Assembly (NCBI GenBank): GCA_049700215.1
Contig: JBNAVT010000001.1
Span: 61,016-125,015, forward strand
Direction: 5' to 3'
Length of the DNA stretch: 64,000 bases
Source: Thermoproteota archaeon
GTDB taxonomy: Archaea; Thermoproteota; EX4484-205; JAAOZP01
Below the pieces are notes generated by a model, which was given only the letters and a program-made list of their open reading frames with translations, did not search any database and was not told the DNA's origin. The translations under genes and the position numbers were made by a program. Shown here one piece after another: positions 41,351-55,290 of this stretch; within the stretch, counting starts at the first letter, position 1; each line of letters opens with the position of its first letter.

Positions 41351-41605
41351 ATGAAGAAAGAATTGTTTGCGGTAAGAGGAATAGAGGAGGAGACGTATGT
41401 CAGGTTCAGGGAGAAAGCTATAGCTAAAAGGCTACGAGTAGGGGAAGCATTGACTTTAGCGATGAAGGAATGGCTTAAAAAAGAGGAGGAAAGGGAGAAA
41501 GTCAACCCCAGAAATCTGCTGAAAATTAAACCGTTTGACTGGGGGCCCGGGTCTGAAAGAACCAGCGAGGAGATAGATGAAATTCTATACGGTAGGAAAA
41601 GATGA
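41351..41605 (+). CDS. Antitoxin (RHH-like, VapB)
   Basis: Small ORF ending SEEIDEILYG, ATGA-coupled to PIN gene. Confidence 0.8.
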   Translation: MKKELFAVRGIEEETYVRFREKAIAKRLRVGEALTLAMKEWLKKEEEREKVNPRNLLKIKPFDWGPGSERTSEEIDEILYGRKR

Positions 41606-42012
41606 TATTCTTAGATACGAGTTTCATAGTCGCTTTTTACAACACTAGGGATGAGAATCATATTAAGGCGAAAAACCTGATGCCGGATATAGTTGCTTCT
41701 AAGTATGGTCCTTTATATATTTCCGATTATGTTTTCGATGAGACCATGACTGTTGTTTTCATTCGCCTCAGAAATCTACGTAGGGCAGTCCGCATCGGAG
41801 AATATTTAAGGAAATCACTGAGGCTTGTTGAAGTCACGAGTTCGAATTTTGAGGATGCTTGGCAAATTTTTAAAAAACAGAGGGAAACTGGTTTCAGCTT
41901 TACGGATTGCACGAGCATCTCTCTAATGAGGAGAATGAATATCAGAAATATTGCTACTTTTGACAAAGACTTTCTTAAACTAAGGGAAGTAAATGTGATT
42001 GGAGCGGAATAG
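41602..42012 (+). CDS. vapC: VapC PIN-domain toxin
   Basis: IFLDTSF, D.NH, E, SFTDCTS, IATFDKDF. Confidence 0.9.
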   Translation: MIFLDTSFIVAFYNTRDENHIKAKNLMPDIVASKYGPLYISDYVFDETMTVVFIRLRNLRRAVRIGEYLRKSLRLVEVTSSNFEDAWQIFKKQRETGFSFTDCTSISLMRRMNIRNIATFDKDFLKLREVNVIGAE

Positions 42013-42780: not shown

Positions 42781-44346
42781 TTGGAGGAGAGTAAGATCCT
42801 TGTTTTCGACACGACTCTCAGGGATGGTAACCAGGCTGTTGGAATAAACTTCTCGCTTGAGGATAAGGTTAAGATTGCTCTGAAGCTTGACGACCTTGGC
42901 GTGAACTATATTGAGGGCGGATGGCCTAACCAGACTAACCCGGTTGATGTTTCTTTCTTCCAGCGGATACTGAAATACAGGCTGAGGGCCAGGGTTTCAA
43001 CATTCGGAAGGACTCGTAAGCCATTGGTCAGGGTTGAGGAGGATCCTGATTTAAAATACCTTGTTCAGCCTAACATTCCTACTGCAACGATATTCGGGAA
43101 ATCCTGGGTCCTGCACGTTAAGGATGTTTTAAACACGACGCTTGAAGAAAACCTAAGTATGATTTACGATAGTGTTAAGTATTTGAAGGAATCTAGCAGG
43201 GAAGTCGTGTTCGACGCTGAGCATTTCTTCGACGGCTACAGGGATGATCCGGACTACGCCTTGGAGGTTTTGAAGACGGCTGAGAAAGCAGGAGCCTCCT
43301 TCCTGGTTCTGGCTGACACGCGGGGCGCCTCAGACCCTCTGGAGGTCTATGAGGTCGTTAGGAAAGTTAAAGGGTTTTTCGAAACCCCGTTGGGGATTCA
43401 CGCTCACAACGATACTGGTATGGCTGTGGCTAACAGTGTTGCTGCTGTTAAAGCCGGGGCCGTGATGGTGCAGGGCACTATAAACGGGATAGGGGAGAGG
43501 TGTGGGAACGCTGACCTTGTTCAGGTTATAGGGGTTTTAGCCGCAAGGTTCAACTACAGGATGGATGTTAACCTGAGAATGCTCTCCACAGTCTCCCGGT
43601 ATCTGCGCGACATAGCTTCCCTAGAGGAGAACCCTAGGCAGCCTTTCGTAGGCAAGTATGCTTTCTCCCATAAGGGCGGTGTGCACGGCGACGCTGTTCT
43701 GAAAAACAGGGAGGCTTACGAGTTCACAGACCCAGCTATCTTCGGCAGCACGAGCGCGATAGTTGTTTCCTCGCAGTCGGGAACAGCTAACCTTGCAGCC
43801 AAGGCTCAGGAAATGGGTCTCGAAGTCGACAGGAGGGATCCGAGGATCCTTGAGGCTCTGAAAAGAATTAAGGATCTGGAGGCGAAAGGATATGTCTTCG
43901 AGGACGCCGACGGCAGTCTTTTCCTGCTTCTCCACGAGGCTCTACACGGTCCGCCGCAGCTTTTTGAGCTTGAACACTGGACCTCGATCGTCACATGGCT
44001 CGGGGACAGGCAGATTGTTGAATGCGTCGTTAAAGTAAGGGTCGGCGGGGTCAGCATGTCCGCCTCCGCGGAGGGAAACGGGCCTGTTAACGCTTTCGAC
44101 AGTGCTTTGAAGAAGGCTCTCAGCCCCGTTTACCCAGGTATCGCGTACGTTTCCCTAACGGGGTTCAGGGTCAGGGAGATAGACGCGCCCTCAGGCACTG
44201 CAGCCGCCGTAAGGATACTGGCTGAGTTCGAATCCGACGGCAGCAGGTGGACGACGATAGGTGTTTCAACAAACATTCTGAAGGCTGCTGAAGAGGCGCT
44301 TGTAGCCGGCTACAAGTATTTCCTTTTAAAGCACAATAAGCAATGA
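42781..44346 (+). CDS. cimA: Citramalate synthase / 2-isopropylmalate synthase family
   Basis: DTTLRDG, YIEGGWP, FGKSW.LHV, DAEHFFDG, HAHND, GERCGNA, HKGGVH, EGNGPVNA. Confidence 0.88.
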   Translation: MEESKILVFDTTLRDGNQAVGINFSLEDKVKIALKLDDLGVNYIEGGWPNQTNPVDVSFFQRILKYRLRARVSTFGRTRKPLVRVEEDPDLKYLVQPNIPTATIFGKSWVLHVKDVLNTTLEENLSMIYDSVKYLKESSREVVFDAEHFFDGYRDDPDYALEVLKTAEKAGASFLVLADTRGASDPLEVYEVVRKVKGFFETPLGIHAHNDTGMAVANSVAAVKAGAVMVQGTINGIGERCGNADLVQVIGVLAARFNYRMDVNLRMLSTVSRYLRDIASLEENPRQPFVGKYAFSHKGGVHGDAVLKNREAYEFTDPAIFGSTSAIVVSSQSGTANLAAKAQEMGLEVDRRDPRILEALKRIKDLEAKGYVFEDADGSLFLLLHEALHGPPQLFELEHWTSIVTWLGDRQIVECVVKVRVGGVSMSASAEGNGPVNAFDSALKKALSPVYPGIAYVSLTGFRVREIDAPSGTAAAVRILAEFESDGSRWTTIGVSTNILKAAEEALVAGYKYFLLKHNKQ

Positions 44347-44480
44347 CGCGATGCTTCTCGCATTTTCAACGCTTACCCTTGTTGAATCCTAAAGCCCGGA
44401 TTCGTGTGAATTATAAACGGCAGTAATAGGAGGAATGCTTATCAAGTAAGATTTTTAAACACGGCGGGTCGTGCGGCTCC

Positions 44481-44573
44481 ATGCTTAAGTCTTCGAGGCG
44501 CGTCGAACAGCCTCCTGAAGTCGCGGGAAGGGCTTCAGGAGAAGGCTTCTACCTAATGTTCCACTATTATTAA
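44481..44573 (+). promoter_or_regulatory. Putative leader peptide/attenuator of the aro operon (30 aa ending FYLMFHYY)
   Basis: TTTTTAAA at 44452-44459; ATG 44481; five Phe/Tyr among the last eight codons; alternative pairings of 44509-44521 with 44532-44541 or with the SD region 44578-44587. Confidence 0.6.
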
Positions 44574-44594
44574 ACGCTCAGGAGGTTTTGGGAA

Positions 44595-45815
44595 ATGGGT
44601 TTCAACGGGGTTCTCGTCGTCAAATTCGGGGGCGCGGCTCTCTCAACCAGGGAGAGGGTTGAGCATGCTGCTGAGCTAGTCGCCCAAGAGGTTAGGAAGG
44701 GCAGCAAGGTTGTGACCGTAGTCTCAGCCATGGGCTCAACCACGGATACTCTTCTCCAGCTTTTCAAGGAAGCCGGCGACCCCCAGTTCATGGACGAGAT
44801 TCTATCAATGGGTGAAAGGACTAGCGCCAGGGTTTTCTCAACCACGCTTTTAACGAAGGGTGTTAAAGCTACTTTCCTAGACCCGTCTCAGGACAACTGG
44901 CCGATCTTGACCGACAGTAACTACGGTAACGCTCGGATAATCGTTCAGGAGTCCTGCAGGAGGATCAGGCAGGTTTTAGAGGGCCTGCTGGATGAATTCG
45001 ACGTGGTTGTAGTCCCGGGTTTCGTAGGCAGGGATCAGGATGGTAATGTTACGACGCTCGGCAGGGGTGGGAGCGACTCAACAGCCTTCATACTCGCCTC
45101 AGCCCTGAACCCTAAGGACACTATTCTGGTTACAAGCGTCTCCGGAATAATGTCGGCTGACCCGCGGCTCGTGAAGTCGGCCAGGAGGCTGGAGGAGCTT
45201 ACGACCGAGGAGCTCGCAGCCCTCGCGGACGTCGGGGTTAAGTTCATACATAAATCATCCTTAAAATATATTCCGCCCTCGCTGAAGGTCAGGGTTATAA
45301 GCTATGATTCTGAGAGTCTAAGTGACGGTGGGACGCTCATACTTGCCTCAACACCGCCGTTAAGCATGGAGGTTATTAACGGCAGCATCTCCGCAGTCAT
45401 GTTCGTCGGCAGGAGCCTAAGGGCTGTCGGCAGGGCTATGGATGTTTTGAGAAGCGTCGATGCGAGCGAGCCTAGGCTCCTCGGAATCGTCGCAAACAAC
45501 AGGGAGGTGCTCGCATACTTCTCCGAGAGCCTCCGGGAGGAGACTGTTCAAAAGATGCATGACGAGTTCCTTCTAGGGGAGGATGCTGTAGGCCTCGCGG
45601 TGAGACAGGGCTTGCGGGGAATACTCATAAGGGGGACAGACCTTCACGAGACGCCCGGGGTCCTTTACAGGATTTCTGCACCCATGGCTAAGGAGGGGAT
45701 TAACATACACGGCATCCTGACGCTCGGCTCCTACTTCATAGTGCTCCTCCCTGAGGAGTATGTTGAGAAGGCCTTCAGGCTTCTGGAGGAGGCTTTCAGG
45801 ATTGAGGAGGATTAG
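44595..45815 (+). CDS. lysC: Aspartate kinase
   Basis: VVKFGG, VVSAMG.TTD, SMGERTS, TTLGRGGSD, ADPR. Confidence 0.92.
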   Translation: MGFNGVLVVKFGGAALSTRERVEHAAELVAQEVRKGSKVVTVVSAMGSTTDTLLQLFKEAGDPQFMDEILSMGERTSARVFSTTLLTKGVKATFLDPSQDNWPILTDSNYGNARIIVQESCRRIRQVLEGLLDEFDVVVVPGFVGRDQDGNVTTLGRGGSDSTAFILASALNPKDTILVTSVSGIMSADPRLVKSARRLEELTTEELAALADVGVKFIHKSSLKYIPPSLKVRVISYDSESLSDGGTLILASTPPLSMEVINGSISAVMFVGRSLRAVGRAMDVLRSVDASEPRLLGIVANNREVLAYFSESLREETVQKMHDEFLLGEDAVGLAVRQGLRGILIRGTDLHETPGVLYRISAPMAKEGINIHGILTLGSYFIVLLPEEYVEKAFRLLEEAFRIEED

Positions 45816-46842
45816 CGTAGCGGTTCTCGGGGCCACGGGTCTAGTTGGGCAAAGGTTTGTAAAGCTGCTTTCCAGCCACCCGTTTTTCGAAATAAAGGTT
45901 TTAACAGCCTCGGAGAGGTCTGTGGGAAGGAAGTACAGGGAGGCTGCGCACTGGCTTCTAGGAGGCGACCCACCTGAGCCTGCTTCAGAGATGATCATCC
46001 GGGAAACCAGCGTTGAGGCATTGAGGGATGTCGAGCTTGTTTTCTCAAGCCTCCCGAGCGACGTTGCTTCGAAATTTGAGCCCATGCTCGCCGAGCAGGG
46101 CTTTAAAATCGTCTCCACCGCGAGCGCCTTCAGGATGGACCCGCTCGTACCCATGATAATCCCTGAAGTCAACCCTGAACATTTGGGCTTAATAGAGAGG
46201 CAGCGTGAGGAGAAGCGTTGGAAGGGCTTTCTCGTAACGAAGTCGAACTGCACGACGATGCCGCTCGTAATCTCGCTGAAGCCTCTTCTAGACGCCTTCG
46301 GCTTGAGAAGGGTTGTGACTGTTTCGCTGCAGGCCTTGAGCGGGGCGGGCTACCCGGGTGTCCAGTCGCTCGACATTGTTGACAACGTAATACCCTTCAT
46401 AAAGGGTGAGGAGGAGAAGCTTCAGGCTGAAACCCTCAAGATACTGGGTGAACCCGGTAGACTGCTCAACATACCGGTTTTGGCTGGTGTTAACAGGGTT
46501 CCAACTCTAGACGGTCATCTGCTCCATGTTTTCGCCGAGCTTGAGAAAGACGTTGAAGCCGAGGATGTTAAGAGGGTGCTGCGAGAGTTCAAACCGCTGC
46601 CGCAGAGGATGGGCTTATACTCGGCTCCAGACCCCGTTATACAGGTTAGGGAGGAGGAGGACAGGCCTCAGCCCAGGCTTGACAGGGATTACAAGGGGGG
46701 GATGGGGGTTGTCGTGGGGAGGGTTGCGAAATGCGACTCTTTAACGGTTAAGTATACTGCTCTCTCACACAATACTGTGAGGGGTGCTGCAGGAGGCTCG
46801 ATACTCGTGGCGGAGCTGCTTAGGGAGATGAGGCTCGTTTGA
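45802..46842 (+). CDS. asd: Aspartate-semialdehyde dehydrogenase
   Basis: VLGATGLVGQ, IPEVN, SNCTT, QALSGAG, HNTVRGAAG. Confidence 0.96.
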   Translation: MRRISVAVLGATGLVGQRFVKLLSSHPFFEIKVLTASERSVGRKYREAAHWLLGGDPPEPASEMIIRETSVEALRDVELVFSSLPSDVASKFEPMLAEQGFKIVSTASAFRMDPLVPMIIPEVNPEHLGLIERQREEKRWKGFLVTKSNCTTMPLVISLKPLLDAFGLRRVVTVSLQALSGAGYPGVQSLDIVDNVIPFIKGEEEKLQAETLKILGEPGRLLNIPVLAGVNRVPTLDGHLLHVFAELEKDVEAEDVKRVLREFKPLPQRMGLYSAPDPVIQVREEEDRPQPRLDRDYKGGMGVVVGRVAKCDSLTVKYTALSHNTVRGAAGGSILVAELLREMRLV

Positions 46843-47642
46843 GCATGCTTGATGTTCCTGAGCCAGGTAAGAGGAGGAGGCTTAGAAGGATTTTCAGGGA
46901 GGATGGGAGGAGCGTCATAGTTCCTATGGACCACGGTGTCTCCATAGGGCCGGTGAAGGGCCTGGAGGACATGGCTAGGCTGGTGGGTGAGCTGGCTAAG
47001 GGTGGTGTCGACGCTATTGTTGTCCACAAGGGTTGGGCGAGGAGGATTGAAGCCTCGGGGCTGGGGATGATTGTGCACGGCTCAGCTGGGACAGACCTCA
47101 GCCCAGACAGGCTTAGGAAGGCTCGCTGCGCAACCCCTCTTGAGGCTCTTTCACTCGGTGCAGACGGCTTCTCCCTGCATGTCAACGTTGGCTCTGAAAC
47201 AGACTTTGAGCAGCTCGCATTCCTAGCGGAGTCAGCGAGGGTCTGCAGCGTTCTAGGCATGCCTCTTCTAGCCATGATGTATCCCAGGGGCCTGAAGATA
47301 GCTGACGAGCATTCCCCTAAAGAGGTTGCTCACGCCGCGAGAATAGGAGTGGAGCTAGGCGCCGACGTTGTTAAGACGAACTACACGGGCTCGCCGGAGT
47401 CGTTCAGGATCATAGTGGAGTCTACGCGCATACCCGTGGTTATAGCGGGCGGGCCAAAAACCTCGTCGGCCAGGGAATTCCTAAAGATGGTTAGCGAGGC
47501 TGTTTCAGCCGGTGCCGCCGGAGTCTCGATAGGCAGGAATGTTTTCCAGCATGATAGCCCGAGGAGGATGGCTGAGGCTCTTAAGGCGATTGTTCACGAA
47601 AACGCTTCCGTAGACTATGCGCTGGAGGTCGCTGAGGATTGA
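46839..47642 (+). CDS. aroA': 2-amino-3,7-dideoxy-D-threo-hept-6-ulosonate synthase
   Basis: IVPMDHG, LLAMMYPRG, ELGADVVKTNY, AGGPK, GRNVFQH; adjacent to DHQ synthase II. Confidence 0.9.
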   Translation: MSMLDVPEPGKRRRLRRIFREDGRSVIVPMDHGVSIGPVKGLEDMARLVGELAKGGVDAIVVHKGWARRIEASGLGMIVHGSAGTDLSPDRLRKARCATPLEALSLGADGFSLHVNVGSETDFEQLAFLAESARVCSVLGMPLLAMMYPRGLKIADEHSPKEVAHAARIGVELGADVVKTNYTGSPESFRIIVESTRIPVVIAGGPKTSSAREFLKMVSEAVSAGAAGVSIGRNVFQHDSPRRMAEALKAIVHENASVDYALEVAED

Positions 47643-48637
47643 AGGAGATCTGGGTTTTCGCGGAGAGCGTGGGCCAGGCTCCTGGCGTAGACAGGTTTGT
47701 CTCGAGAAGCCGGGGGATGGTGGAGGGCAGGGGTGAGAGCCTTAGGCTGGTGGAATGGGGCTCCCAGGAGCCTTGTGAACGCGTCGACCCCGGTTCAACA
47801 GTGCTTGAGCTAGAGGTGAGGTGCTCGGGGGACGAGGAGGAGGCTTTGAACGCTGTGGAGAAAGGCTTCAGAAGGATTCTTGTGAAAACATCCGACTGGA
47901 AGGTTATACCCTGGGAGAACCTTGTCGCGAAGCTTAGGAACAGGGCTATGATTATCGCCGAGGCATCCAGCATCGAGGAGGCTAAGCTCGCCCTCAGGGC
48001 TCTTGAGCTCGGCGTTGACGCTGTGGCTCTCGACATGCCTCTTGAAGAGGCTTCTAAAGCCGCGGAGGAGCTTAAGAGCATTGAAGCCGTGTTGAGGCTT
48101 CACGAGGCGACTGTCGAAAAAGTTTCTGAAGCAGGGGTTGGATTAAGAGCATGCATAGATGCTTGTGACAACATGAGCCCGGGAGAGGGCATGCTTATAG
48201 GGGCATTCTCGTCAATGCTGGTTCTCGTCGAGGCGGAGGTTGCTGAATCCGGCTTCACGAAGCCAAGGCCCTTCAGGGTTAACGCTGGAGCAATATCCCA
48301 GTATGTCCTCTCAACCAGGGGGCTTTCACCATACATTAGCGACCTCAGGTCTGGGGACATTGTCCTCGCTGTTTCGAGAACAGGCGAGGCCAGGGCCCTG
48401 ACAATATGCAGGATGAAGGTTGAGAAGAGGCCTCTCAGGATGGTTGAGATCGGTTTAAACGGTTCAAGGGGTAAGGTTTTCCTGCAGGATGCTGAAACCA
48501 TAAGGGTTGTGAGCCCAGCCGGCTCAGTGAGTGTTAGAGACCTTAAACCCGGTGACAGGATTGTTGCCTACGCTCCCAGAAGGGTTGGAAGGCATTTCGG
48601 CACCCCTGTGGAAGGGGAGCTGATGCTCGAGTTTTGA
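47639..48637 (+). CDS. aroB': 3-dehydroquinate synthase II
   Basis: DWKVIPWEN, RACID.C, RPFRVNAG, KVEKRPL, LQDAETIR, RHFG. Confidence 0.93.
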   Translation: MKEIWVFAESVGQAPGVDRFVSRSRGMVEGRGESLRLVEWGSQEPCERVDPGSTVLELEVRCSGDEEEALNAVEKGFRRILVKTSDWKVIPWENLVAKLRNRAMIIAEASSIEEAKLALRALELGVDAVALDMPLEEASKAAEELKSIEAVLRLHEATVEKVSEAGVGLRACIDACDNMSPGEGMLIGAFSSMLVLVEAEVAESGFTKPRPFRVNAGAISQYVLSTRGLSPYISDLRSGDIVLAVSRTGEARALTICRMKVEKRPLRMVEIGLNGSRGKVFLQDAETIRVVSPAGSVSVRDLKPGDRIVAYAPRRVGRHFGTPVEGELMLEF

Positions 48638-49314
48638 GGCCGAGGATATGCGTTTCAGTCAAGGCGGACAATGTCTCAAGGGTTTCAAGGGCGCTCGATG
48701 CTTCAAGCAGGCTTGGTGCCAGCCTTGTTGAGCTCAGGCTAGACTATTCGAGTGAGAAGCAGTATGAGGCTGTTTTGAAGGTCGTCGAGTCCTCACGCGT
48801 CCGCTGCGTTGCGACGATAAGGCCTAGCTGGGACGGCGGTGCTTACCGTGGCAGTGAGGAGGAGAGGCTGAGAATGTTCGAGAAGGCTCTGGAAGCCCCC
48901 TTCCGGTATGTGGATGTTGAGCAGAAATCCAGGATTATCGACGGGGTTTCTAGACTGGCTTCCGAAAAAGGCATCGGGCTGATTCTTTCACGCCACGAGT
49001 GGGCCGGCACCCCCAGCGTTAAAACCCTGTTCAGAATGCTTTCAGCGATGAAGAAGAGGAGGGCTGAAATATATAAGATTGTCACGACGGTCAGGAGCCC
49101 TTTTGACGAGTCTAGCCTACTGTTCTTCCTCAGCAGCATCCGGGGTAGCAGGGTCGTGTGCTTCGGCATGGGGGAGCAGGGTTTAGCCACAAGGATTCTC
49201 ACACCCCTACTTGGAGGCTTCATGACCTACGCCTCGTACGGTGAGGCTCTTGCACCGGGCCAGATAGGCCTGAGGAGAATGGTTTCGATATACAGGAGAA
49301 TGGGCGTATGGTAG
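48634..49314 (+). CDS. aroD: Type I 3-dehydroquinate dehydratase
   Basis: VELRLD, TIR...GG, SRH, GMGE.G..TR, APGQ. Confidence 0.92.
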   Translation: MRPRICVSVKADNVSRVSRALDASSRLGASLVELRLDYSSEKQYEAVLKVVESSRVRCVATIRPSWDGGAYRGSEEERLRMFEKALEAPFRYVDVEQKSRIIDGVSRLASEKGIGLILSRHEWAGTPSVKTLFRMLSAMKKRRAEIYKIVTTVRSPFDESSLLFFLSSIRGSRVVCFGMGEQGLATRILTPLLGGFMTYASYGEALAPGQIGLRRMVSIYRRMGVW

Positions 49315-50153
49315 GGTGGCTTCCAACATCGGAGTCGAGGCTGCTCTTCGTAATAGGAGACCCTGTTTCACACTCAGTAAGCCCAGCGATCCACAACAGG
49401 GCTATGAGGAGGCTGGGTATCGACGCCGTCTACCTTGCGCTGAGAGTAACTGGGGAAATGCTCGGATGCTTCGTCTCCATGTGCAGGCTGAACAGGGTGC
49501 TGGGCTTCAACGTCACAATACCGCATAAGATTGCTGTAGCAAGCCTTGTAGACACGCTGGATGAGTCGGCTGAGCTAACGGGCTGCGTCAACACGGTCAG
49601 GGTTGGAGACAGGCTTGAGGGTTTCAACACGGACGTAGCCGGGGTTGAGAAATCCCTCGTGAACGCCGGCTTCAAAGGCGGGGGTGTTGCAGCCGTCGTA
49701 GGCGCCGGCGGGGGTGCTAGGGCAGCTGTCCTAGCGTTGCTTTCGATGGGGTGCAGGGTCGTGGTTTTGAACAGGAGCCCGGGCAGGATGCTTGAGCTCG
49801 AGAAGCATTTCTCGAAGAAGGGCATGAGGATTGAGACCCGGAGCCTACAGGATGCTCAGCAGGCTGTTCAGCAGGCTGACCTAGTTGTCAACGCGACGCC
49901 TGTGGGGATGGGGGATGGTTTTGAAACGCCTTTTCCAACAAGCTTCCTCAGGAGGGGGCAGACTCTTCTAGACATGGTTTACACCCCCCACCCGACGAGG
50001 CTTGTCAAGGAGGCTTCTGAAAAAGGGTTGACCACTGTGCCGGGTGTTGAAATGCTCATCCACCAGGCTGCTGCAAGCTTCGAAATATGGTTTGGCGTGA
50101 AGCCTCCGCTGGAGGAGATGAGGGACGAAGCATTAAGGAGGCTTAAGGGTTGA
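49308..50153 (+). CDS. aroE: Shikimate dehydrogenase
   Basis: HSVSP.IHN, NVTIPHK, VNT, NTD, GAGGGA, NATPVGM, ML.HQA. Confidence 0.95.
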   Translation: MVGWLPTSESRLLFVIGDPVSHSVSPAIHNRAMRRLGIDAVYLALRVTGEMLGCFVSMCRLNRVLGFNVTIPHKIAVASLVDTLDESAELTGCVNTVRVGDRLEGFNTDVAGVEKSLVNAGFKGGGVAAVVGAGGGARAAVLALLSMGCRVVVLNRSPGRMLELEKHFSKKGMRIETRSLQDAQQAVQQADLVVNATPVGMGDGFETPFPTSFLRRGQTLLDMVYTPHPTRLVKEASEKGLTTVPGVEMLIHQAAASFEIWFGVKPPLEEMRDEALRRLKG

Positions 50154-50998
50154 GCAGGGCCAGGGTTCACGGAGCCGTAAGCATTGTCAACGCGATGGCG
50201 AACGGCCTGGGTGCAGCCCTGGGGGTTGGGCTGAGGGTTGAGGCGAGCTGCAGGCTGGTTGAGGAGCCCGTGTTCAGAGTATGCTCGGGAGACAGGTTTC
50301 TCAAGCCTGGAAGCCTGCCTGAAAAGGTTTGCAGACTAATACTTGGAGACCACGGCCTTCAGAAAGGCTGTGAAGTAAGCATCTACTCTGAAATACCCGT
50401 TAGGAAAGGCTTGAAGTCGAGCAGTGCCGTATCCTCAGCCGTCGCCCTCGCCTGCCTTAAAGAGGTTTCAGGCGAAGCCGGGCTAATGGAGGCAGCCAAG
50501 TACTCTGTTGAAGCAAGCATCCAGACAGGCGTGTCGGTGACAGGAGCCTTCGACGATGCTGCAGCATGCCTCCTCGGGGGGCTGGTGGTTACGGATAATT
50601 TTGAGAGGAGGCTCATCGCCAGGAGGCTGGTGGAGGATGATCTCAGGATCGTAATACTCGTCCCCCAGGGCGGAATGCTCAGCGGGAAGGTTGACACAAG
50701 CCTCTTCAAGCCTGTTGAACCCTTGATGAGGCTCGCCCACAGTCTGGCTTTAAACGGTGAGGAATGGCTGGCGATGACTCTAAATGGCCTTGCTGTTTCA
50801 ACAGCCCTAGGCTTAGATGTGAAGCCAGCCTTAGAGGCTTTGAAGAACGGCGCTGTCGCCGCCGGGGTTTCCGGCAAGGGGCCTGCCGTAGCCTCCGTAG
50901 TGAGGCCTCAGGATGCTGAAAGAGTCGGCAGAGCCCTTTCAAGGTTCGGCAGGGTTATTGAAACAGGTGTGTGCAACGAGAATGCGAGCGTCGAGTAG
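50150..50998 (+). CDS. aroK: Archaeal (GHMP) shikimate kinase
   Basis: GAVSIVNA, GLKSSSA, VTGAFDDA, SGKGP. Confidence 0.94.
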   Translation: MSRARVHGAVSIVNAMANGLGAALGVGLRVEASCRLVEEPVFRVCSGDRFLKPGSLPEKVCRLILGDHGLQKGCEVSIYSEIPVRKGLKSSSAVSSAVALACLKEVSGEAGLMEAAKYSVEASIQTGVSVTGAFDDAAACLLGGLVVTDNFERRLIARRLVEDDLRIVILVPQGGMLSGKVDTSLFKPVEPLMRLAHSLALNGEEWLAMTLNGLAVSTALGLDVKPALEALKNGAVAAGVSGKGPAVASVVRPQDAERVGRALSRFGRVIETGVCNENASVE

Positions 50999-50999
50999 A

Positions 51000-52265
51000 G
51001 TGTTGAAGATTAAGGGTGGCTGGGCTGGAAGAATCAGCTACACGGCTCCGCCCTCGAAATCATACTCTCACAGGAGCCTCCTGATTTCCGCTGTTTCGAA
51101 AGGGGTTTCAAGGATAACCGGGCTATCCGGGTGCGACGACATGGAGGTGACTCTGAGAGCGCTCAGCCTAACTGGTGTACGCGTTTCAAAACGGGGTGGA
51201 GAAACGCTTGTCGAAGGCGGCGGGCTCCGGAGCCCCAGCGGGGAGGTTGACTGCGGCGGCTCAGCCTCAACGCTCAGGATGCTTGCCCCCATCGTGGCCG
51301 CTAAGCCCTCTCACGCGGTCTACACGGGTGACGAGAGCCTTAGAAGGAGACCCGTTGACATGCTTGAGGAGGCGTTCGACACGCTTGGCGTTGAAGCAAG
51401 CTCGGTCAACGGGAAGCCTCCTTTAACCGTCAGGAGCAGCGGCTTCAAGGCTAATACTGTTCTCCTAGACGCTTCAGAGTCCAGCCAGCATGTTTCAGGC
51501 TTCCTCATCGCTGGAGCCAGTCTTGGAAGCGGCTTCACCGTTCTATTGAAAAACAGGGTTATAGTCTCAAAGCCCTACGTGGACCTGACTCTCAGAATGC
51601 TCCGTATGCATGGCGTGGAAACCCGAGTGGGGAAAGGGTTTATAAGGGTTGAGCCCGGGGAGCCTAAGCCTTTCAACCATACTGTTCCAGGCGACTATTC
51701 TCTTTCAGCAATACCCTTAGCAATGGCCGCGGTTTCAGGCAGCGTGATTAAGGTTCATGGGCTTGTGGACGAGCCTCAGCCGGATAGGGAGGTTGTCGAA
51801 ACACTGAGGCGGATGGGGCTTAAAATAGAGTGGTCCGGCAATACACTTATAGCTGAGAACACTGGCCTCCTGAAAGCATGCGTAGTGGACTGCTCGGGAA
51901 ACCCGGACCTGGTTCCGGCTCTGGCGCTTGCCGCGACAGCCGCGGAGGGTGAGACTATTCTGAAGAACGTTGGCAGGCTTGAAGCGAAGGAGTCGGCGAG
52001 GGCGACGCTCATCACCCGTGCCCTTTCAAAGATGGGTGTGAAAACTTTTTTCAAAAACGGGGAGATCATTGTCGAAGGGCCGTGCAGGCTCAGGGGTGCA
52101 ACCGTTGACGCTGGCGGAGACCACAGGATAGAGATGATGCTTATAGTGGCGGGGGCTGTGGCTGAGGGTGAGACGACAATCCTCAACGCGGGCTCTGTCT
52201 CAAAGTCTAACCCAGGGTTCTACGACTGGGTCTTGGAGACGGGGGTTGAGCTCAAATGGGTTTAA
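51000..52265 (+). CDS. aroA: EPSP synthase
   Basis: PPSKSYSHR, GDESLRRRP, SSQHVSG, VSKPYV, PGDYS, KES.R, DHRI, KSNPGF; start could be ATG 50982. Confidence 0.93.
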   Translation: MLKIKGGWAGRISYTAPPSKSYSHRSLLISAVSKGVSRITGLSGCDDMEVTLRALSLTGVRVSKRGGETLVEGGGLRSPSGEVDCGGSASTLRMLAPIVAAKPSHAVYTGDESLRRRPVDMLEEAFDTLGVEASSVNGKPPLTVRSSGFKANTVLLDASESSQHVSGFLIAGASLGSGFTVLLKNRVIVSKPYVDLTLRMLRMHGVETRVGKGFIRVEPGEPKPFNHTVPGDYSLSAIPLAMAAVSGSVIKVHGLVDEPQPDREVVETLRRMGLKIEWSGNTLIAENTGLLKACVVDCSGNPDLVPALALAATAAEGETILKNVGRLEAKESARATLITRALSKMGVKTFFKNGEIIVEGPCRLRGATVDAGGDHRIEMMLIVAGAVAEGETTILNAGSVSKSNPGFYDWVLETGVELKWV

Positions 52266-53350
52266 ACACTCTAGGCAGGCTGGTTGTGTTCAGCTTCTTC
52301 GGCGAGAGCCATGGCAAGCTTGTTGGAACACTAATACAGGGCTTCCCAGCTGGCCTAAGGGTTGACGAGGACAGGGTTAGGATCAGCCTCTCCCGCAGGA
52401 GGACCGGCTACGGCTCAACGGCGAGGGTTGAAGAGGATCGCTTCGAAATCCTCAGCGGGGTTTTCAAAGGCTTCACAACAGGAGCCCCCCTGCTCATAGC
52501 GGTTTGGAACAAGGAGGCTGACCAGGGCTTCTACGAGAGGATCAGGAGCACGCCTAGGCCTAGCCACGTTGACTACCCCTACAGGGTTAGGTACGGCGGC
52601 TTCAACGACTACAGGGGGGGCGGCTTCTCCTCGGGAAGGCTCACAGCAGGCTGGGTTGCAGCGGGCTCGCTCGCAGCCCAGGTTCTCGAGAAAAAGGGGG
52701 TGAGAATATACGCGCACGTCACCAGGATAGGCAGGGCCTTCTACAAGGGTGAGCCGAGCGAGGAGGACTTGAAAAAGGTTTACGAGTCCCCAGTCAGGTG
52801 CGTCGACCCGGATGCTTCAAGAATGATGATGAGGGAGATTGACGATGCTTCCCGTGAAAGGGACAGTGTCGGCGGGGTTGTGGAGTGCAGGGTCTACGGC
52901 GTTCCCCCGGGAATCGGGGACCCGCTTGCCGAGGGGCTTGACGTTGAGCTAGCCAGAGCAGTAATGTCTATTCCGAGCGTTAAAGGGGTTGAGTTCGGCA
53001 GGGGTTTCGAAGCCTCCTGCATGAGGGGGAGCGTTTTCAACGATGAGCTCGCCGTCAGGAATGGGAGGGTTGAGGTCACTGGGTTTAGCGACGGGGGTGT
53101 TGTCGGCGGTGTTTCAACGGGGAGCGTGATAGTTTTCAGAGCAGCCGTTAAACCCACTCCCTCCATAGGGAGGGTTCAGCGCACAGTAAACCTTGAGGAA
53201 ATGAGGAGCGTCGACCTTGACCTCTCCGGGGGAAGGTTCGACGTCTGCATCGCCCCCAGGGCTGTCCCCGTGGTTGAGGCTGTTGCAGCAATGGTTCTCA
53301 TCGACCATTATGCTAGAGCAGGCCTCGTCGGGAGGATTGTTAAGGATTGA
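52256..53350 (+). CDS. aroC: Chorismate synthase
   Basis: GESHG, PRPSH.D, GGG.SSGR, RDSVGG, KPTPSI, PRAVPVVEA. Confidence 0.96.
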   Translation: MGLNTLGRLVVFSFFGESHGKLVGTLIQGFPAGLRVDEDRVRISLSRRRTGYGSTARVEEDRFEILSGVFKGFTTGAPLLIAVWNKEADQGFYERIRSTPRPSHVDYPYRVRYGGFNDYRGGGFSSGRLTAGWVAAGSLAAQVLEKKGVRIYAHVTRIGRAFYKGEPSEEDLKKVYESPVRCVDPDASRMMMREIDDASRERDSVGGVVECRVYGVPPGIGDPLAEGLDVELARAVMSIPSVKGVEFGRGFEASCMRGSVFNDELAVRNGRVEVTGFSDGGVVGGVSTGSVIVFRAAVKPTPSIGRVQRTVNLEEMRSVDLDLSGGRFDVCIAPRAVPVVEAVAAMVLIDHYARAGLVGRIVKD

Positions 53351-54423
53351 GCCTTGAAGAACTGAGAAGGATGATTGACAGGGTTGACGAGAAGCTTGTT
53401 GATGCTATGGCTGAGAGGATCAGGATTGCGAGAATGATAGGCGGGGAGAAGAGGAGAAAGGGTGTCCCGGTTGTCGACGAGAGGAGGGAGAGGGAGGTTT
53501 ACAAGCATGTCGTTGAAAAGGCTTCTGCGAGAGGCTTGGACACTCGTCTGGTTGAAAAGGTTTTCAGCCTCCTCATAGACTACAGCAGGAGGACCCAGGG
53601 GTGTTTCAAAGTCGGCTATCTTGGGCCGAGAGGCTCCTTCACGATGGAGGCTGCTGAGAAATACTTCTCCGGAAAGCCGTATGCTCTCCAGCCCTACCCG
53701 ACGATTAGAAGCGTTTTCAGAAGCGTTGAGGAGGCTGAGGTGGACTACGGGGTTACACCGGTTGAAAACAGTCTTGAAGGCCCTGTTTCCGAGACCCTGG
53801 ACTGCCTAGCCTCCTCTAGACTCAGCATCGTGGGCGAGGAGGTGTTGAAAATAATGTTCCACCTTTCTTCCAGGGAGAGGAGGCTTGAAGACATCAGGAT
53901 TGTCTTCTCAAACCCTCACGCCCTCGCGCAGGTAAGGCTTTTCCTAGACAGGGTTCTGCCCGAAGCGCGGATAAGAGAGGTTTCAAGCACTTCTGCAGCC
54001 GCCTCCATGGCTGTTAAAACCAGGGGGGGTGCGGCAGTATGCTCCGAGGCTGCTGCCAGAGAATACGGCTTGAGAATCCTGGCGAGGAATATTCAGGATG
54101 AGCGGGAGAACTACACTCGATTCCTCATCCTTTCGAGAGAAGCCTCCAAGAGGTTTAAGGGGGCTGCGAGAACAATGCTGATAATGATTCTTGAGCACAA
54201 GCCCGGATCCCTCTACAGGGCTCTCGGAGTGTTCGCGAAGCACGGTCTAAACCTTACCAGGATAGAGTCTAGACCGGTCAGGGGCAAGCCCTGGGAATAC
54301 ATGTTTCTAGTCGAGTTTGAAGGCGCCTCCTGGAACCAGGGGGTGCGCGTGGCGCTGGAGAAGCTTAAGCGCAGGGCTGTGGAGATTAGAATACTCGGCT
54401 CCTACAGGCCTGCTGAACACTAA
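53347..54423 (+). CDS. pheA: Chorismate mutase/prephenate dehydratase
   Basis: LRRMIDRVD, YLGP.GSF, PVENS.EG, NYTRF, HKPGSL, LTRIESRP. Confidence 0.95.
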   Translation: MSLEELRRMIDRVDEKLVDAMAERIRIARMIGGEKRRKGVPVVDERREREVYKHVVEKASARGLDTRLVEKVFSLLIDYSRRTQGCFKVGYLGPRGSFTMEAAEKYFSGKPYALQPYPTIRSVFRSVEEAEVDYGVTPVENSLEGPVSETLDCLASSRLSIVGEEVLKIMFHLSSRERRLEDIRIVFSNPHALAQVRLFLDRVLPEARIREVSSTSAAASMAVKTRGGAAVCSEAAAREYGLRILARNIQDERENYTRFLILSREASKRFKGAARTMLIMILEHKPGSLYRALGVFAKHGLNLTRIESRPVRGKPWEYMFLVEFEGASWNQGVRVALEKLKRRAVEIRILGSYRPAEH

Positions 54424-54525
54424 GCACGCGCGGCTCAGGCTTCCACAGCTTGCCCCCCGCTTCAAGGCCTTTTGACGCTCAGCATACATGATGTTTTTAT
54501 ATTCCTCCAGCTCCGTTTAAAGCCT

Positions 54526-55290
54526 GTGGAGGAGGACGGCCTGGAGAAGGTTATACTGGCCCTCTCATACGGTAAGAGGAGAGCCCTGCTTATGAAGCTA
54601 GGGGAATCCGGGTCGATGAGCGTTAAGGATCTTAAGAGGGAGCTGGGCCTGAGCACGGGCAGCCTCTACCATAATCTCCTCGCGCTCGGCGAGCTCGTCG
54701 AGCAGACAAGCGACAAGAAGTATGCTTTAAGCGAGCAGGGCAGGAGGGTCTACCTCGCTTTGAAATCAGGCCTACTGCCTCCCCCGGCTTCAGGGGAGCT
54801 GCCCAGGGTTTTCGAAACCCTCGTCCCAGTATGGTTCTTCACCGGAATGCCGAGCAGGATTGTGACGCCCATGGCTGCGCTAATAGTGTTAAGCCTATCA
54901 GCCTCAAGCCTCTACGCTAAGATGGGTCTAGCCCTCCTTATCCCGGTTGCCAACGTAAGCTTCTCCTCGACGCTTGGAAGCGTCGCCCTAAGCCTCCTTC
55001 TCGCCTACCTTGTCCCCAGAACGGTTTTCCAGAAGAGGAGTGTTGAAACAGGCTTCTTAACAGCCATACCGTTCTGCTTCCTACCCCAGCTCCTCTACAG
55101 CATGGTTCTAGTGGTTTCAAACCCGCCGAGCCTCGCCGCCGGGCTTATTCAAATAGTCTCAGGAGGCTTAAGCGCGCTCCTGCTTTCAGCAGCAATAGTA
55201 TGCTGGTTTAAAGCGAGCCCCCAGGCTGCGATGCTAACCTCTTTCCTAATGCTTTACCTGGGGGCAGCCATCCAGCAGTTCATGGTTTAG
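54526..55290 (+). CDS. ArsR-type winged-helix regulator fused to a multi-TM domain
   Basis: RRALL..L...LGLSTGSLYHNL..L...Y.LSEQG followed by about 5 hydrophobic helices; GTG 54526 lies downstream of a TATA-like box. Confidence 0.7.
   Translation: MEEDGLEKVILALSYGKRRALLMKLGESGSMSVKDLKRELGLSTGSLYHNLLALGELVEQTSDKKYALSEQGRRVYLALKSGLLPPPASGELPRVFETLVPVWFFTGMPSRIVTPMAALIVLSLSASSLYAKMGLALLIPVANVSFSSTLGSVALSLLLAYLVPRTVFQKRSVETGFLTAIPFCFLPQLLYSMVLVVSNPPSLAAGLIQIVSGGLSALLLSAAIVCWFKASPQAAMLTSFLMLYLGAAIQQFMV

Follow-up and report, generated by a model that had tools for sequence, protein, structure and literature searches.

We describe a putative leader peptide in front of the aromatic amino acid biosynthesis (aro) operon of a Thermoproteota archaeon (GenBank assembly GCA_049700215.1). 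It lies within a stretch of 64,000 nucleotides (nt) that was analysed as a whole and is referred to here as the window (contig JBNAVT010000001.1, positions 61,016 to 125,015 of the forward strand; all coordinates below are window positions, and the leader, its promoter and the operon genes lie on the + strand). The element is an open reading frame (ORF) of 30 codons with Phe/Tyr at five of its eight final positions, and this leader ORF, the spacing of its promoter, its aromatic tail and a hairpin inside the ORF all exist and are conserved. We hold it to be very probable that the ORF represents a sensory leader peptide, if variants with a translational and with a transcriptional output are taken together, and we favour as probable, for this genus, a Phe/Tyr-tRNA-sensing leader peptide whose output would be mainly translational. 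Where the transcript starts, that the ORF is translated, that ribosomes stall on it, and at which level and in which direction control is exerted are points that we infer. A preliminary description of the locus had proposed the Phe/Tyr-rich leader as a candidate attenuator of the aro operon, and this proposal is now backed by 14 of 14 loci of the same genus and by leaders in at least 11 family codes of the phylum.

The leader ORF and its promoter

The leader ORF, as read from the sequence, spans positions 44481..44573 including its TAA stop codon (44571-44573), and its presumed sensing part is a run of aromatic codons at 44547..44570, namely F23, Y24, F27, Y29 and Y30 (the last at 44568-44570). 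All five aromatic codons of the ORF do lie within the last eight positions, as had been described. The promoter (44445..44459) consists of a purine-rich AGTAA motif resembling a B recognition element (BRE), followed by a TATA octamer at 44452-44459, and 29 nt separate the start of the octamer from the leader ATG at 44481. Downstream, a spacer of 21 nt (44574..44594), which contains the Shine-Dalgarno (SD) motif GGAGG (44581-44585) and a T4 tract (44586-44589), connects the leader stop codon to the ATG (44595) of an SD-led aspartate kinase gene, the first of the ten aro operon genes. The distance from the last Tyr codon to this ATG is 24 nt. Every coordinate given earlier for the TATA box, the leader ATG, the SD and the three pairing segments A, B and C treated below proved to be correct.

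The distance seen at the leader ATG matches the usual archaeal spacing between TATA box and transcript start, and since it amounts to 29-31 nt in all 14 loci of the genus, the leader ORF is probably leaderless, with a transcript that would start at or next to ATG 44481. In the long ORFs of this genome, Phe, Tyr and Trp account for 4.4%, 3.3% and 1.3% of the residues, respectively, or about 9% together. Five aromatic residues in eight are hence unusual, yet the leader is one ORF among many and the window alone leaves the matter open. Given this background, and because the tail is kept in 14 of 14 congeneric loci, the aromatic tail is beyond chance.

Conservation within the genus

The same-genus set comprises 17 genomes including that of the window, and orthologues of the kinase (72-97% identity) were found in 13 of the 16 others; the three genomes without an orthologue, one of which gave a marginal match only, are 70-77% complete. 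At each of the 14 loci the leader ORF is present in frame with a length of 27-31 codons, and the BRE-like element and the TATA octamer are invariant, with the leader ATG 29 nt downstream of the octamer's start at 12 loci and 30 and 31 nt downstream of it at one locus each. The ORF and its Phe/Tyr codons, for which the preliminary description had looked to an alignment of relatives, are thus kept in all loci of the genus. Across the 14 leaders, 66 of the 126 residues in the last nine positions are aromatic (Phe, Tyr or Trp) compared to 3 of 267 in the heads. We take the leader to be read as codons because the lengths of the nearest species differ by whole codons, because the stop codons vary (TAA in seven, TAG in five and TGA in two congeners), and because TTC/TTT, TAC/TAT and Phe/Tyr exchanges between congeners preserve the aromatic character.

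One could also imagine that the UAY/UUY run is an RNA site for a TRAP-like binding protein, or that a transcription factor acting at an upstream box is the only form of control and the ORF is untranslated. A conserved 17-nt box is present at 44411..44427, about 25 nt upstream of BRE/TATA, with nearly all positions invariant in the alignment of the 14 loci, and an ORF with weak winged-helix matches ends the gene cluster; both observations would suit this idea. It would, however, leave unexplained that 14 of 14 loci keep the spacing between TATA box and start codon as well as an in-frame stop, that whole-codon length differences and Phe/Tyr exchanges keep the frame, and that other families share the amino acid bias and not the nucleotide sequence. 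We regard it as very improbable. The box itself could be bound by a regulator or represent another TATA-like element, and a transcription factor may act on the aro operon in addition to the leader. When the genome was searched for the box with up to two mismatches, one other copy only was found, which sits inside a coding region, so that the box is effectively unique.

The gap between leader stop and kinase measures 21-37 nt in the 14 species and always contains an SD-like motif. In such archaea it is common for a leaderless cistron to come first and for SD-led genes to follow, and the leader might accordingly be nothing but a constitutive ribosome loader, from which ribosomes re-initiate at the kinase 21-37 nt downstream without any sensing. 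The short gap with its constant SD motif is what such a loader would have, but a loader leaves unexplained why the aromatic bias is confined to the tail, why it recurs in unrelated leader sequences and why it is found at 0 of 20 kinase-asd loci without aro genes (see below), so that we give this explanation very little credit.

A T4-T5 tract lies between leader stop and kinase ATG in 13 of the 14 congeners, which would be in line with the same sensor ORF having a transcriptional output, the leading ribosome deciding whether the polymerase stops at the T tract before the kinase. Both termination at oligo-T and factor-dependent termination of untranslated RNA are known from archaea. In such a variant, termination would be intrinsic or would follow from a factor loading on RNA bared by ribosome release, and a stalled ribosome would shield the RNA and thereby allow read-through. 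Against this stands that the tract of the window is T4 only and is located in the SD-to-ATG spacer, where T-rich spacers are common, and that no hairpin precedes it. A classical attenuator terminator, i.e. a hairpin plus U tract, was not found at the window, where the stop-to-kinase gap holds the T4 tract only. For this genus we therefore favour translational control, because of the 24-nt spacing, the SD within the gap, the missing hairpin and the short T tract, and consider a transcriptional output unlikely, although it is the main alternative and the better reading for one other family described below.

Distribution across the phylum

A total of 401 genomes of the phylum were searched with the kinase, 112 of which gave a match at E <= 1e-40. 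The loci outside the genus number 107 (100 of the 104 listed kinase places plus 7 more); they were sorted into classes by tblastn with the window's asd, aroA', aroB' and aroD, and from the short ORFs within 260 nt upstream of each kinase, the one with the highest aromatic count over its last ten residues was taken. At least five of these ten residues are aromatic at 45 of 66 aro-linked loci (reverse strand: 1/66), at none of 20 kinase-asd loci without aro genes in reach (reverse strand: 0/20) and at 3 of 21 other kinase loci (reverse strand: 0/21), these counts being given without a p-value because the genomes, being related, cannot count as independent. If at least six aromatic residues are required, 40 of the 66 aro-linked loci remain, and several of the 21 loci that stay below the threshold of five either reach 4/10 or have their aromatic cluster away from the very end. 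The same test at the threshold of five is passed by 8 of the 14 loci within the genus, where five others score 4/10 and where the scan chose a different ORF at the last one (L013, 3/10).

The positive leaders span at least 11 family codes, and their tails in other families comprise runs of seven Tyr or Phe/Tyr alternating over ten codons. Leaders of different families are not mutually alignable; they share composition, not sequence or length. This is difficult to reconcile with a functional aromatic micropeptide that has no regulatory role, for which nothing specific speaks beyond the existence of small hydrophobic peptides: only composition is kept across families, and the ORF is found strictly upstream of aro-linked kinases. 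We find such a micropeptide hardly credible.

The three positive loci among the other kinase loci (L075, L078 and L094) belong to one genus and show a lone kinase with a Phe/Tyr-rich ORF 21-26 nt upstream, no asd or aro gene being found in the stretches examined around the kinase. The leader may follow the kinase rather than the operon in these cases.

When named genomes were scanned with aroA', the closest relatives of the window (81-89% identity) turned out to be metagenome-assembled genomes from hot springs with varying labels (Thermoproteota, Brockarchaeota, Thaumarchaeota or Nitrososphaerota), and most further matches were from Bathyarchaeia. At 80 loci of these named records, up to 6 kb on either side of aroA' were inspected for intergenic ORFs with at least six aromatic residues among the last ten, and 23 loci were positive on the sense strand versus 2 on the reverse strand. 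Sorted by label, the positives amount to 21 of 41 loci for Thermoproteota, Bathyarchaeia or similar and to 2 of 39 otherwise. One of these two is an AT-rich ORF 4.5 kb upstream of aroA' in a Methanothermococcus record. The other is an acidobacterium-labelled contig (L139) that carries aroA' together with a typical Bathyarchaeia aromatic leader and is probably mis-binned. No such ORF was found near aroA' in the Methanocellales, Archaeoglobi, Methanothrix, ANME-1, Methanocaldococcus and Desulfobacterota loci of the scan. Searches of Rfam returned no match in 10 loci of other families and no family match for the window region in release 15, for which the score was at chance level (18.7 bits compared to a gathering score of 70).

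RNA structure

It had been proposed earlier that segment A (44509-44520) pairs either with segment B (44533-44541) or, exclusively, with segment C (44578-44587) at the SD of the kinase gene. In the minimum free energy fold, hairpin A:B lies inside the leader ORF (44512..44541) with arms at 44512-44522 and 44531-44541 that form 11 pairs; its 3' arm stops 5 nt short of the first aromatic codon, and its 5' arm holds an anti-SD-like, C/U-rich core that is kept in all 14 species. A similar hairpin is predicted in each of the 14 congeners as well as in the RNAalifold consensus, and 89% of the alignment cells of the helix pair, compared to 29-60% in registers slid by one to three columns. Three pairs are changed on both sides, and this covariation score was matched by 113 of 500 shuffles and is no better than chance. 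The predicted A:B hairpin is therefore conserved, without proof from covariation.

The second half of the proposed switch fared less well. A:C comprises 10 pairs including one G-U, and segment A with the kinase start region reaches -17.3 kcal/mol, yet 15 of 170 other start regions with GGAGG (a set that may include the kinase's own) match or exceed this value as partners of the segment. Only in the 8 closest species does the kinase start find its best partner within the leader in arm A (-13 to -18 kcal/mol); one further species shows weak pairing, and among the five most distant ones arm A is outranked by other partners. The pairing thus exists in the window without rising above the GGAGG background, it seems to be little more than an anti-SD against an SD, and A:C was rejected as a specific switch. 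The same applies to the mini-ORF MFHYY that had been suggested to start at the internal ATG 44556 of the leader: this ATG is present in the window, but it is missing in at least 6 of the 14 species.

Among 48 leaders of other genera, 37 show a stretch between a point 9 nt upstream of the stop codon and the kinase start that is more stable than expected (z <= -2 based on 200 dinucleotide shuffles), and at most 5 of 200 shuffles were equally stable in 34 of these 37. In the largest family, a 7-bp helix between the extreme 5' region and the codons just before the Tyr run is predicted in all 16 aligned leaders, as is a 9-bp hairpin that starts 0-3 nt 3' of the stop codon; three pairs of these two helices are changed on both sides, and in many of the leaders the last codons and the stop codon pair weakly with the SD region at the hairpin foot. 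In two or three families, the SD is predicted to pair with nucleotides directly 3' of the stop codon or with the two final sense codons. Two features recur in these families and in the genus of the window: the 3' arm of a helix comes to its end immediately ahead of the aromatic run, and 0-3 codons separate this run from the stop codon. With this placement, a ribosome that waits for Phe- or Tyr-tRNA would keep the first helix open and occupy the stop codon together with the next ~7-10 bases. A further metric, according to which the first helix starts at the stop codon (-9 to +6), was discarded as weak, since it holds for 44 of the 48 leaders and for 67% of mononucleotide shuffles likewise.

One family differs in that a 14-bp hairpin directly 3' of the stop codon is followed by a U5-G-U4 tract (z = -3.75 and -4.85, 0/200 shuffles), an arrangement that looks like an intrinsic terminator. 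As its kinase start region is predicted to be open in all states, control of termination would be the better reading here than masking of the SD. A U tract directly 3' of the first helix is rare, being present in 3 of the 48 leaders of other genera only, which speaks against a transcriptional output.

The aro operon and its neighbours

The aspartate kinase at the head of the operon (44595..45815) has 406 residues and a C-terminal ACT domain (Pfam AA_kinase, E 3.4e-42; ACT_7 over its cut-off, ACT_9 under). Nine further genes, identified by Pfam matches and with ORFs that overlap or abut, follow at 45760..54423 in the order asd, aroA' (DeoC type), aroB' (DHQS II), aroD, aroE, a GHMP shikimate kinase, EPSP synthase, chorismate synthase and pheA, which encodes a chorismate mutase-prephenate dehydratase-ACT protein. 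The earlier assignment of a lysC gene as the first of a ten-gene operon that ends in pheA is hence correct for all ten genes. The marker proteins of the 6-deoxy-5-ketofructose 1-phosphate (DKFP) route, aroA' (ADH synthase; PF01791, E 8.8e-54) and aroB' (PF01959, E 2.4e-81), identify it as a DKFP-route aro operon in which they replace DAHP synthase and AroB. Since this route builds dehydroquinate from aspartate semialdehyde, which the kinase and asd supply to aroA' and aroB', it becomes clear why an aspartate kinase ("lysC") heads an aro operon.

The kinase of the operon is the sole full-length aspartate kinase match in this genome, the two others being a partial match of 120 residues (E 3.4e-15) and a distant amino acid kinase (E 7.8e-5). 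The supply of aspartate semialdehyde may thus be tied mainly to aromatic synthesis in this organism. TrpE (PF00425) was not found in the same genome (94.6% complete) or in five other species of the genus with an aro leader; 10 of the genus's 16 other genomes do carry it. Two leaders of the genus have a Trp codon within their aromatic tail, and both come from species with TrpE.

Right after pheA, an ORF of 272 residues (54472-55290) shows sub-threshold winged-helix matches (HTH_5, E 0.011; MarR, E 0.085) and may be an operon-encoded regulator. Upstream of the leader and in the same direction lies a LeuA/homocitrate-synthase-like gene (42781-44346). Further upstream (41351-42012), a small ORF overlaps an ORF with a PIN domain in the manner of a VapBC-like toxin-antitoxin pair, just upstream of the gene for ribosomal protein L15e.

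Other cognate-codon leaders were searched for as well. Three scans of the window's own genome were noisy or empty, and a six-codon Phe/Tyr-rich ORF on another contig (C5), located just after the stop codon of the preceding gene, was dropped. For trpE, about 900 nt of upstream DNA were inspected at 30 loci of the phylum, and short ORFs rich in Trp did not turn up consistently, with the reservation that trpE may not head its operon. In L242, a short ORF that includes two Trp codons terminates some 20 nt upstream of where trpE is inferred to start, and the same ORF tail occurs upstream of trpE in L240, a genome of the same genus; this short ORF could be a Trp leader.

Discussion

From our point of view, the data are best accommodated by the following sequence of events. 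The 30-codon ORF would be a translated regulatory leader and the first cistron of the aro mRNA, with a transcript that begins at its ATG. With five Phe/Tyr codons among the last eight, the rate at which ribosomes clear the end of the ORF would track the supply of charged tRNA-Phe and tRNA-Tyr. With 24 nt from the last Tyr codon to the kinase ATG, the two P sites would be about one ribosome footprint apart. A ribosome that stalls on this last codon would occlude the stop codon and the nucleotides as far as the SD, and it would hold the RNA near the kinase start in a shape other than that left by a ribosome that terminates and departs. The output would be access to the SD and start codon of the kinase and, through the kinase, expression of the coupled operon. 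That scarce Phe- or Tyr-tRNA would lead to higher expression is suggested by pathway logic and not by the predicted folds.

Several results weigh against this interpretation. The 130-nt leader of the window folds with -34.7 kcal/mol compared to -36.3 +/- 3.6 kcal/mol for dinucleotide shuffles (z = +0.46), 133 of 200 of which fold at least as well, and the segment from stop to start is likewise no more stable than its dinucleotide shuffles (z = -0.05). In a footprint model, in which the bases from -12 to +14 around the P site were kept single-stranded and the energy to open the region from -13 to +3 of the kinase start was calculated, the start opens by at least 2 kcal/mol in 11 of the 48 leaders of other genera and closes in 5. 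Within the genus of the window, a stall at the last aromatic codons opens the start by 1-4 kcal/mol in some species only, and a stall at F23/Y24, by releasing arm A for pairing with the SD, is predicted to close the kinase start in most of the nearest species. Such pairing of arm A with the SD, with a ribosome on the first aromatic pair, would lower and not raise expression upon starvation. It also has to be considered that 19 ORFs of this genome share the arrangement of a leaderless ORF plus an SD-led gene and that the aro one is alone among them in having a tail dominated by a single class of residues, and the dependence among the surveyed genomes limits the weight of the phylum-wide counts. 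A single SD-unmasking model for all families was dropped, as the directions obtained by footprint folding are mixed. With regard to the on/off direction, the preliminary description was right in holding that it cannot be deduced from sequence, since footprint-constrained folding gives no consistent direction within the genus.

We are on balance inclined to assume that a large part of the Thermoproteota, namely the Bathyarchaeia and the hot-spring lineage of the window, whose records are variously labelled Brockarchaeota or Thermoproteota, uses ribosome-mediated attenuation of aromatic synthesis. What we observe is a recurrent design that is tied to one pathway over at least 11 family codes, not one odd ORF. 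Attenuation by leader peptides belongs to the textbook mechanisms of bacteria, where it relies on the coupling of transcription to translation, and to our knowledge no archaeal case has been described. In the full-text literature we found no cognate-codon leader and no ribosome-mediated attenuation in an archaeon, in a search that covered neither subscription journals nor supplements; the lists of short ORFs in supplements of archaeal transcriptome and ribosome-profiling papers could hold such ORFs. The introduction of one tool paper, with reviews cited, states that upstream ORFs regulate genes in archaea too.

If our interpretation is correct, this would be the first such system in Archaea, in which the mRNA would carry its sensor ORF at the very 5' end and the outputs would be specific for the family. 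It would imply that archaea sense charged tRNA through the speed of the ribosome and, in the case of the hairpin plus U tract, that RNA structure and ribosome position can govern termination by archaeal RNA polymerase. It would further provide a natural system for studying the coupling of the archaeal ribosome to RNA polymerase or to the start of the next cistron, and an annotation marker for aro regulation in uncultured lineages. Lastly, it would point to an aspartate kinase that is dedicated to, and regulated together with, aromatic amino acid synthesis.

Comparison with known leader systems

Compared with the known systems, the leader would represent an archaeal variant of the bacterial control by cognate-codon leaders, the particular A:B/A:C switch being only partly supported. 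In the enterobacterial pheL-pheA and trpL systems, 1:2, 2:3 and 3:4 hairpins and a terminator are read by bacterial RNA polymerase. The leader of the window resembles these systems in that a short ORF rich in cognate codons precedes an aromatic gene and in that the position of the ribosome would be the signal. It differs from them in lacking a terminator composed of hairpin and U tract, in the archaeal polymerase, in being probably leaderless and in having its aromatic run at the very end of the ORF.

In tnaC, free Trp is sensed through the nascent peptide and turns on a catabolic operon, which involves Rho-dependent termination. We know of no archaeal counterpart, but tnaC can serve as the model for a transcriptional output of the leader, as a ribosome held at the end of the leader ORF shields the RNA from the termination factor.

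The ermCL-ermC system, in which an arrested leader ribosome remodels hairpins and frees the SD of the next gene (as summarised in Canestrari et al., bioRxiv 10.1101/834739), is bacterial as well and, as far as described there, differs in that the arrest is due to a drug and the nascent peptide and not to the supply of charged tRNA.

The nearest system described so far, and a precedent for the mechanism proposed here, is that of the leaderless polycysteine short ORFs of mycobacteria, where stalled ribosomes block structures that sequester the downstream ribosome-binding site, as tested by mutation and proteomics, the level of control at other mycobacterial loci being undetermined according to the authors of that preprint (10.1101/834739). 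The genus of the window differs in that no convincing SD-sequestering structure was found downstream of the stop codon and in that the conserved hairpin is located within the ORF, upstream of the sensing codons. The mycobacterial ORFs are furthermore bacterial and concerned with Cys, whereas the leader described here is archaeal, concerned with Phe/Tyr and known from sequence alone. What both types would share, judging from the account of the mycobacterial one in that preprint, is a leaderless ORF as the first cistron (putative in our case), a run of codons for the pathway's final product and an SD-led gene downstream.

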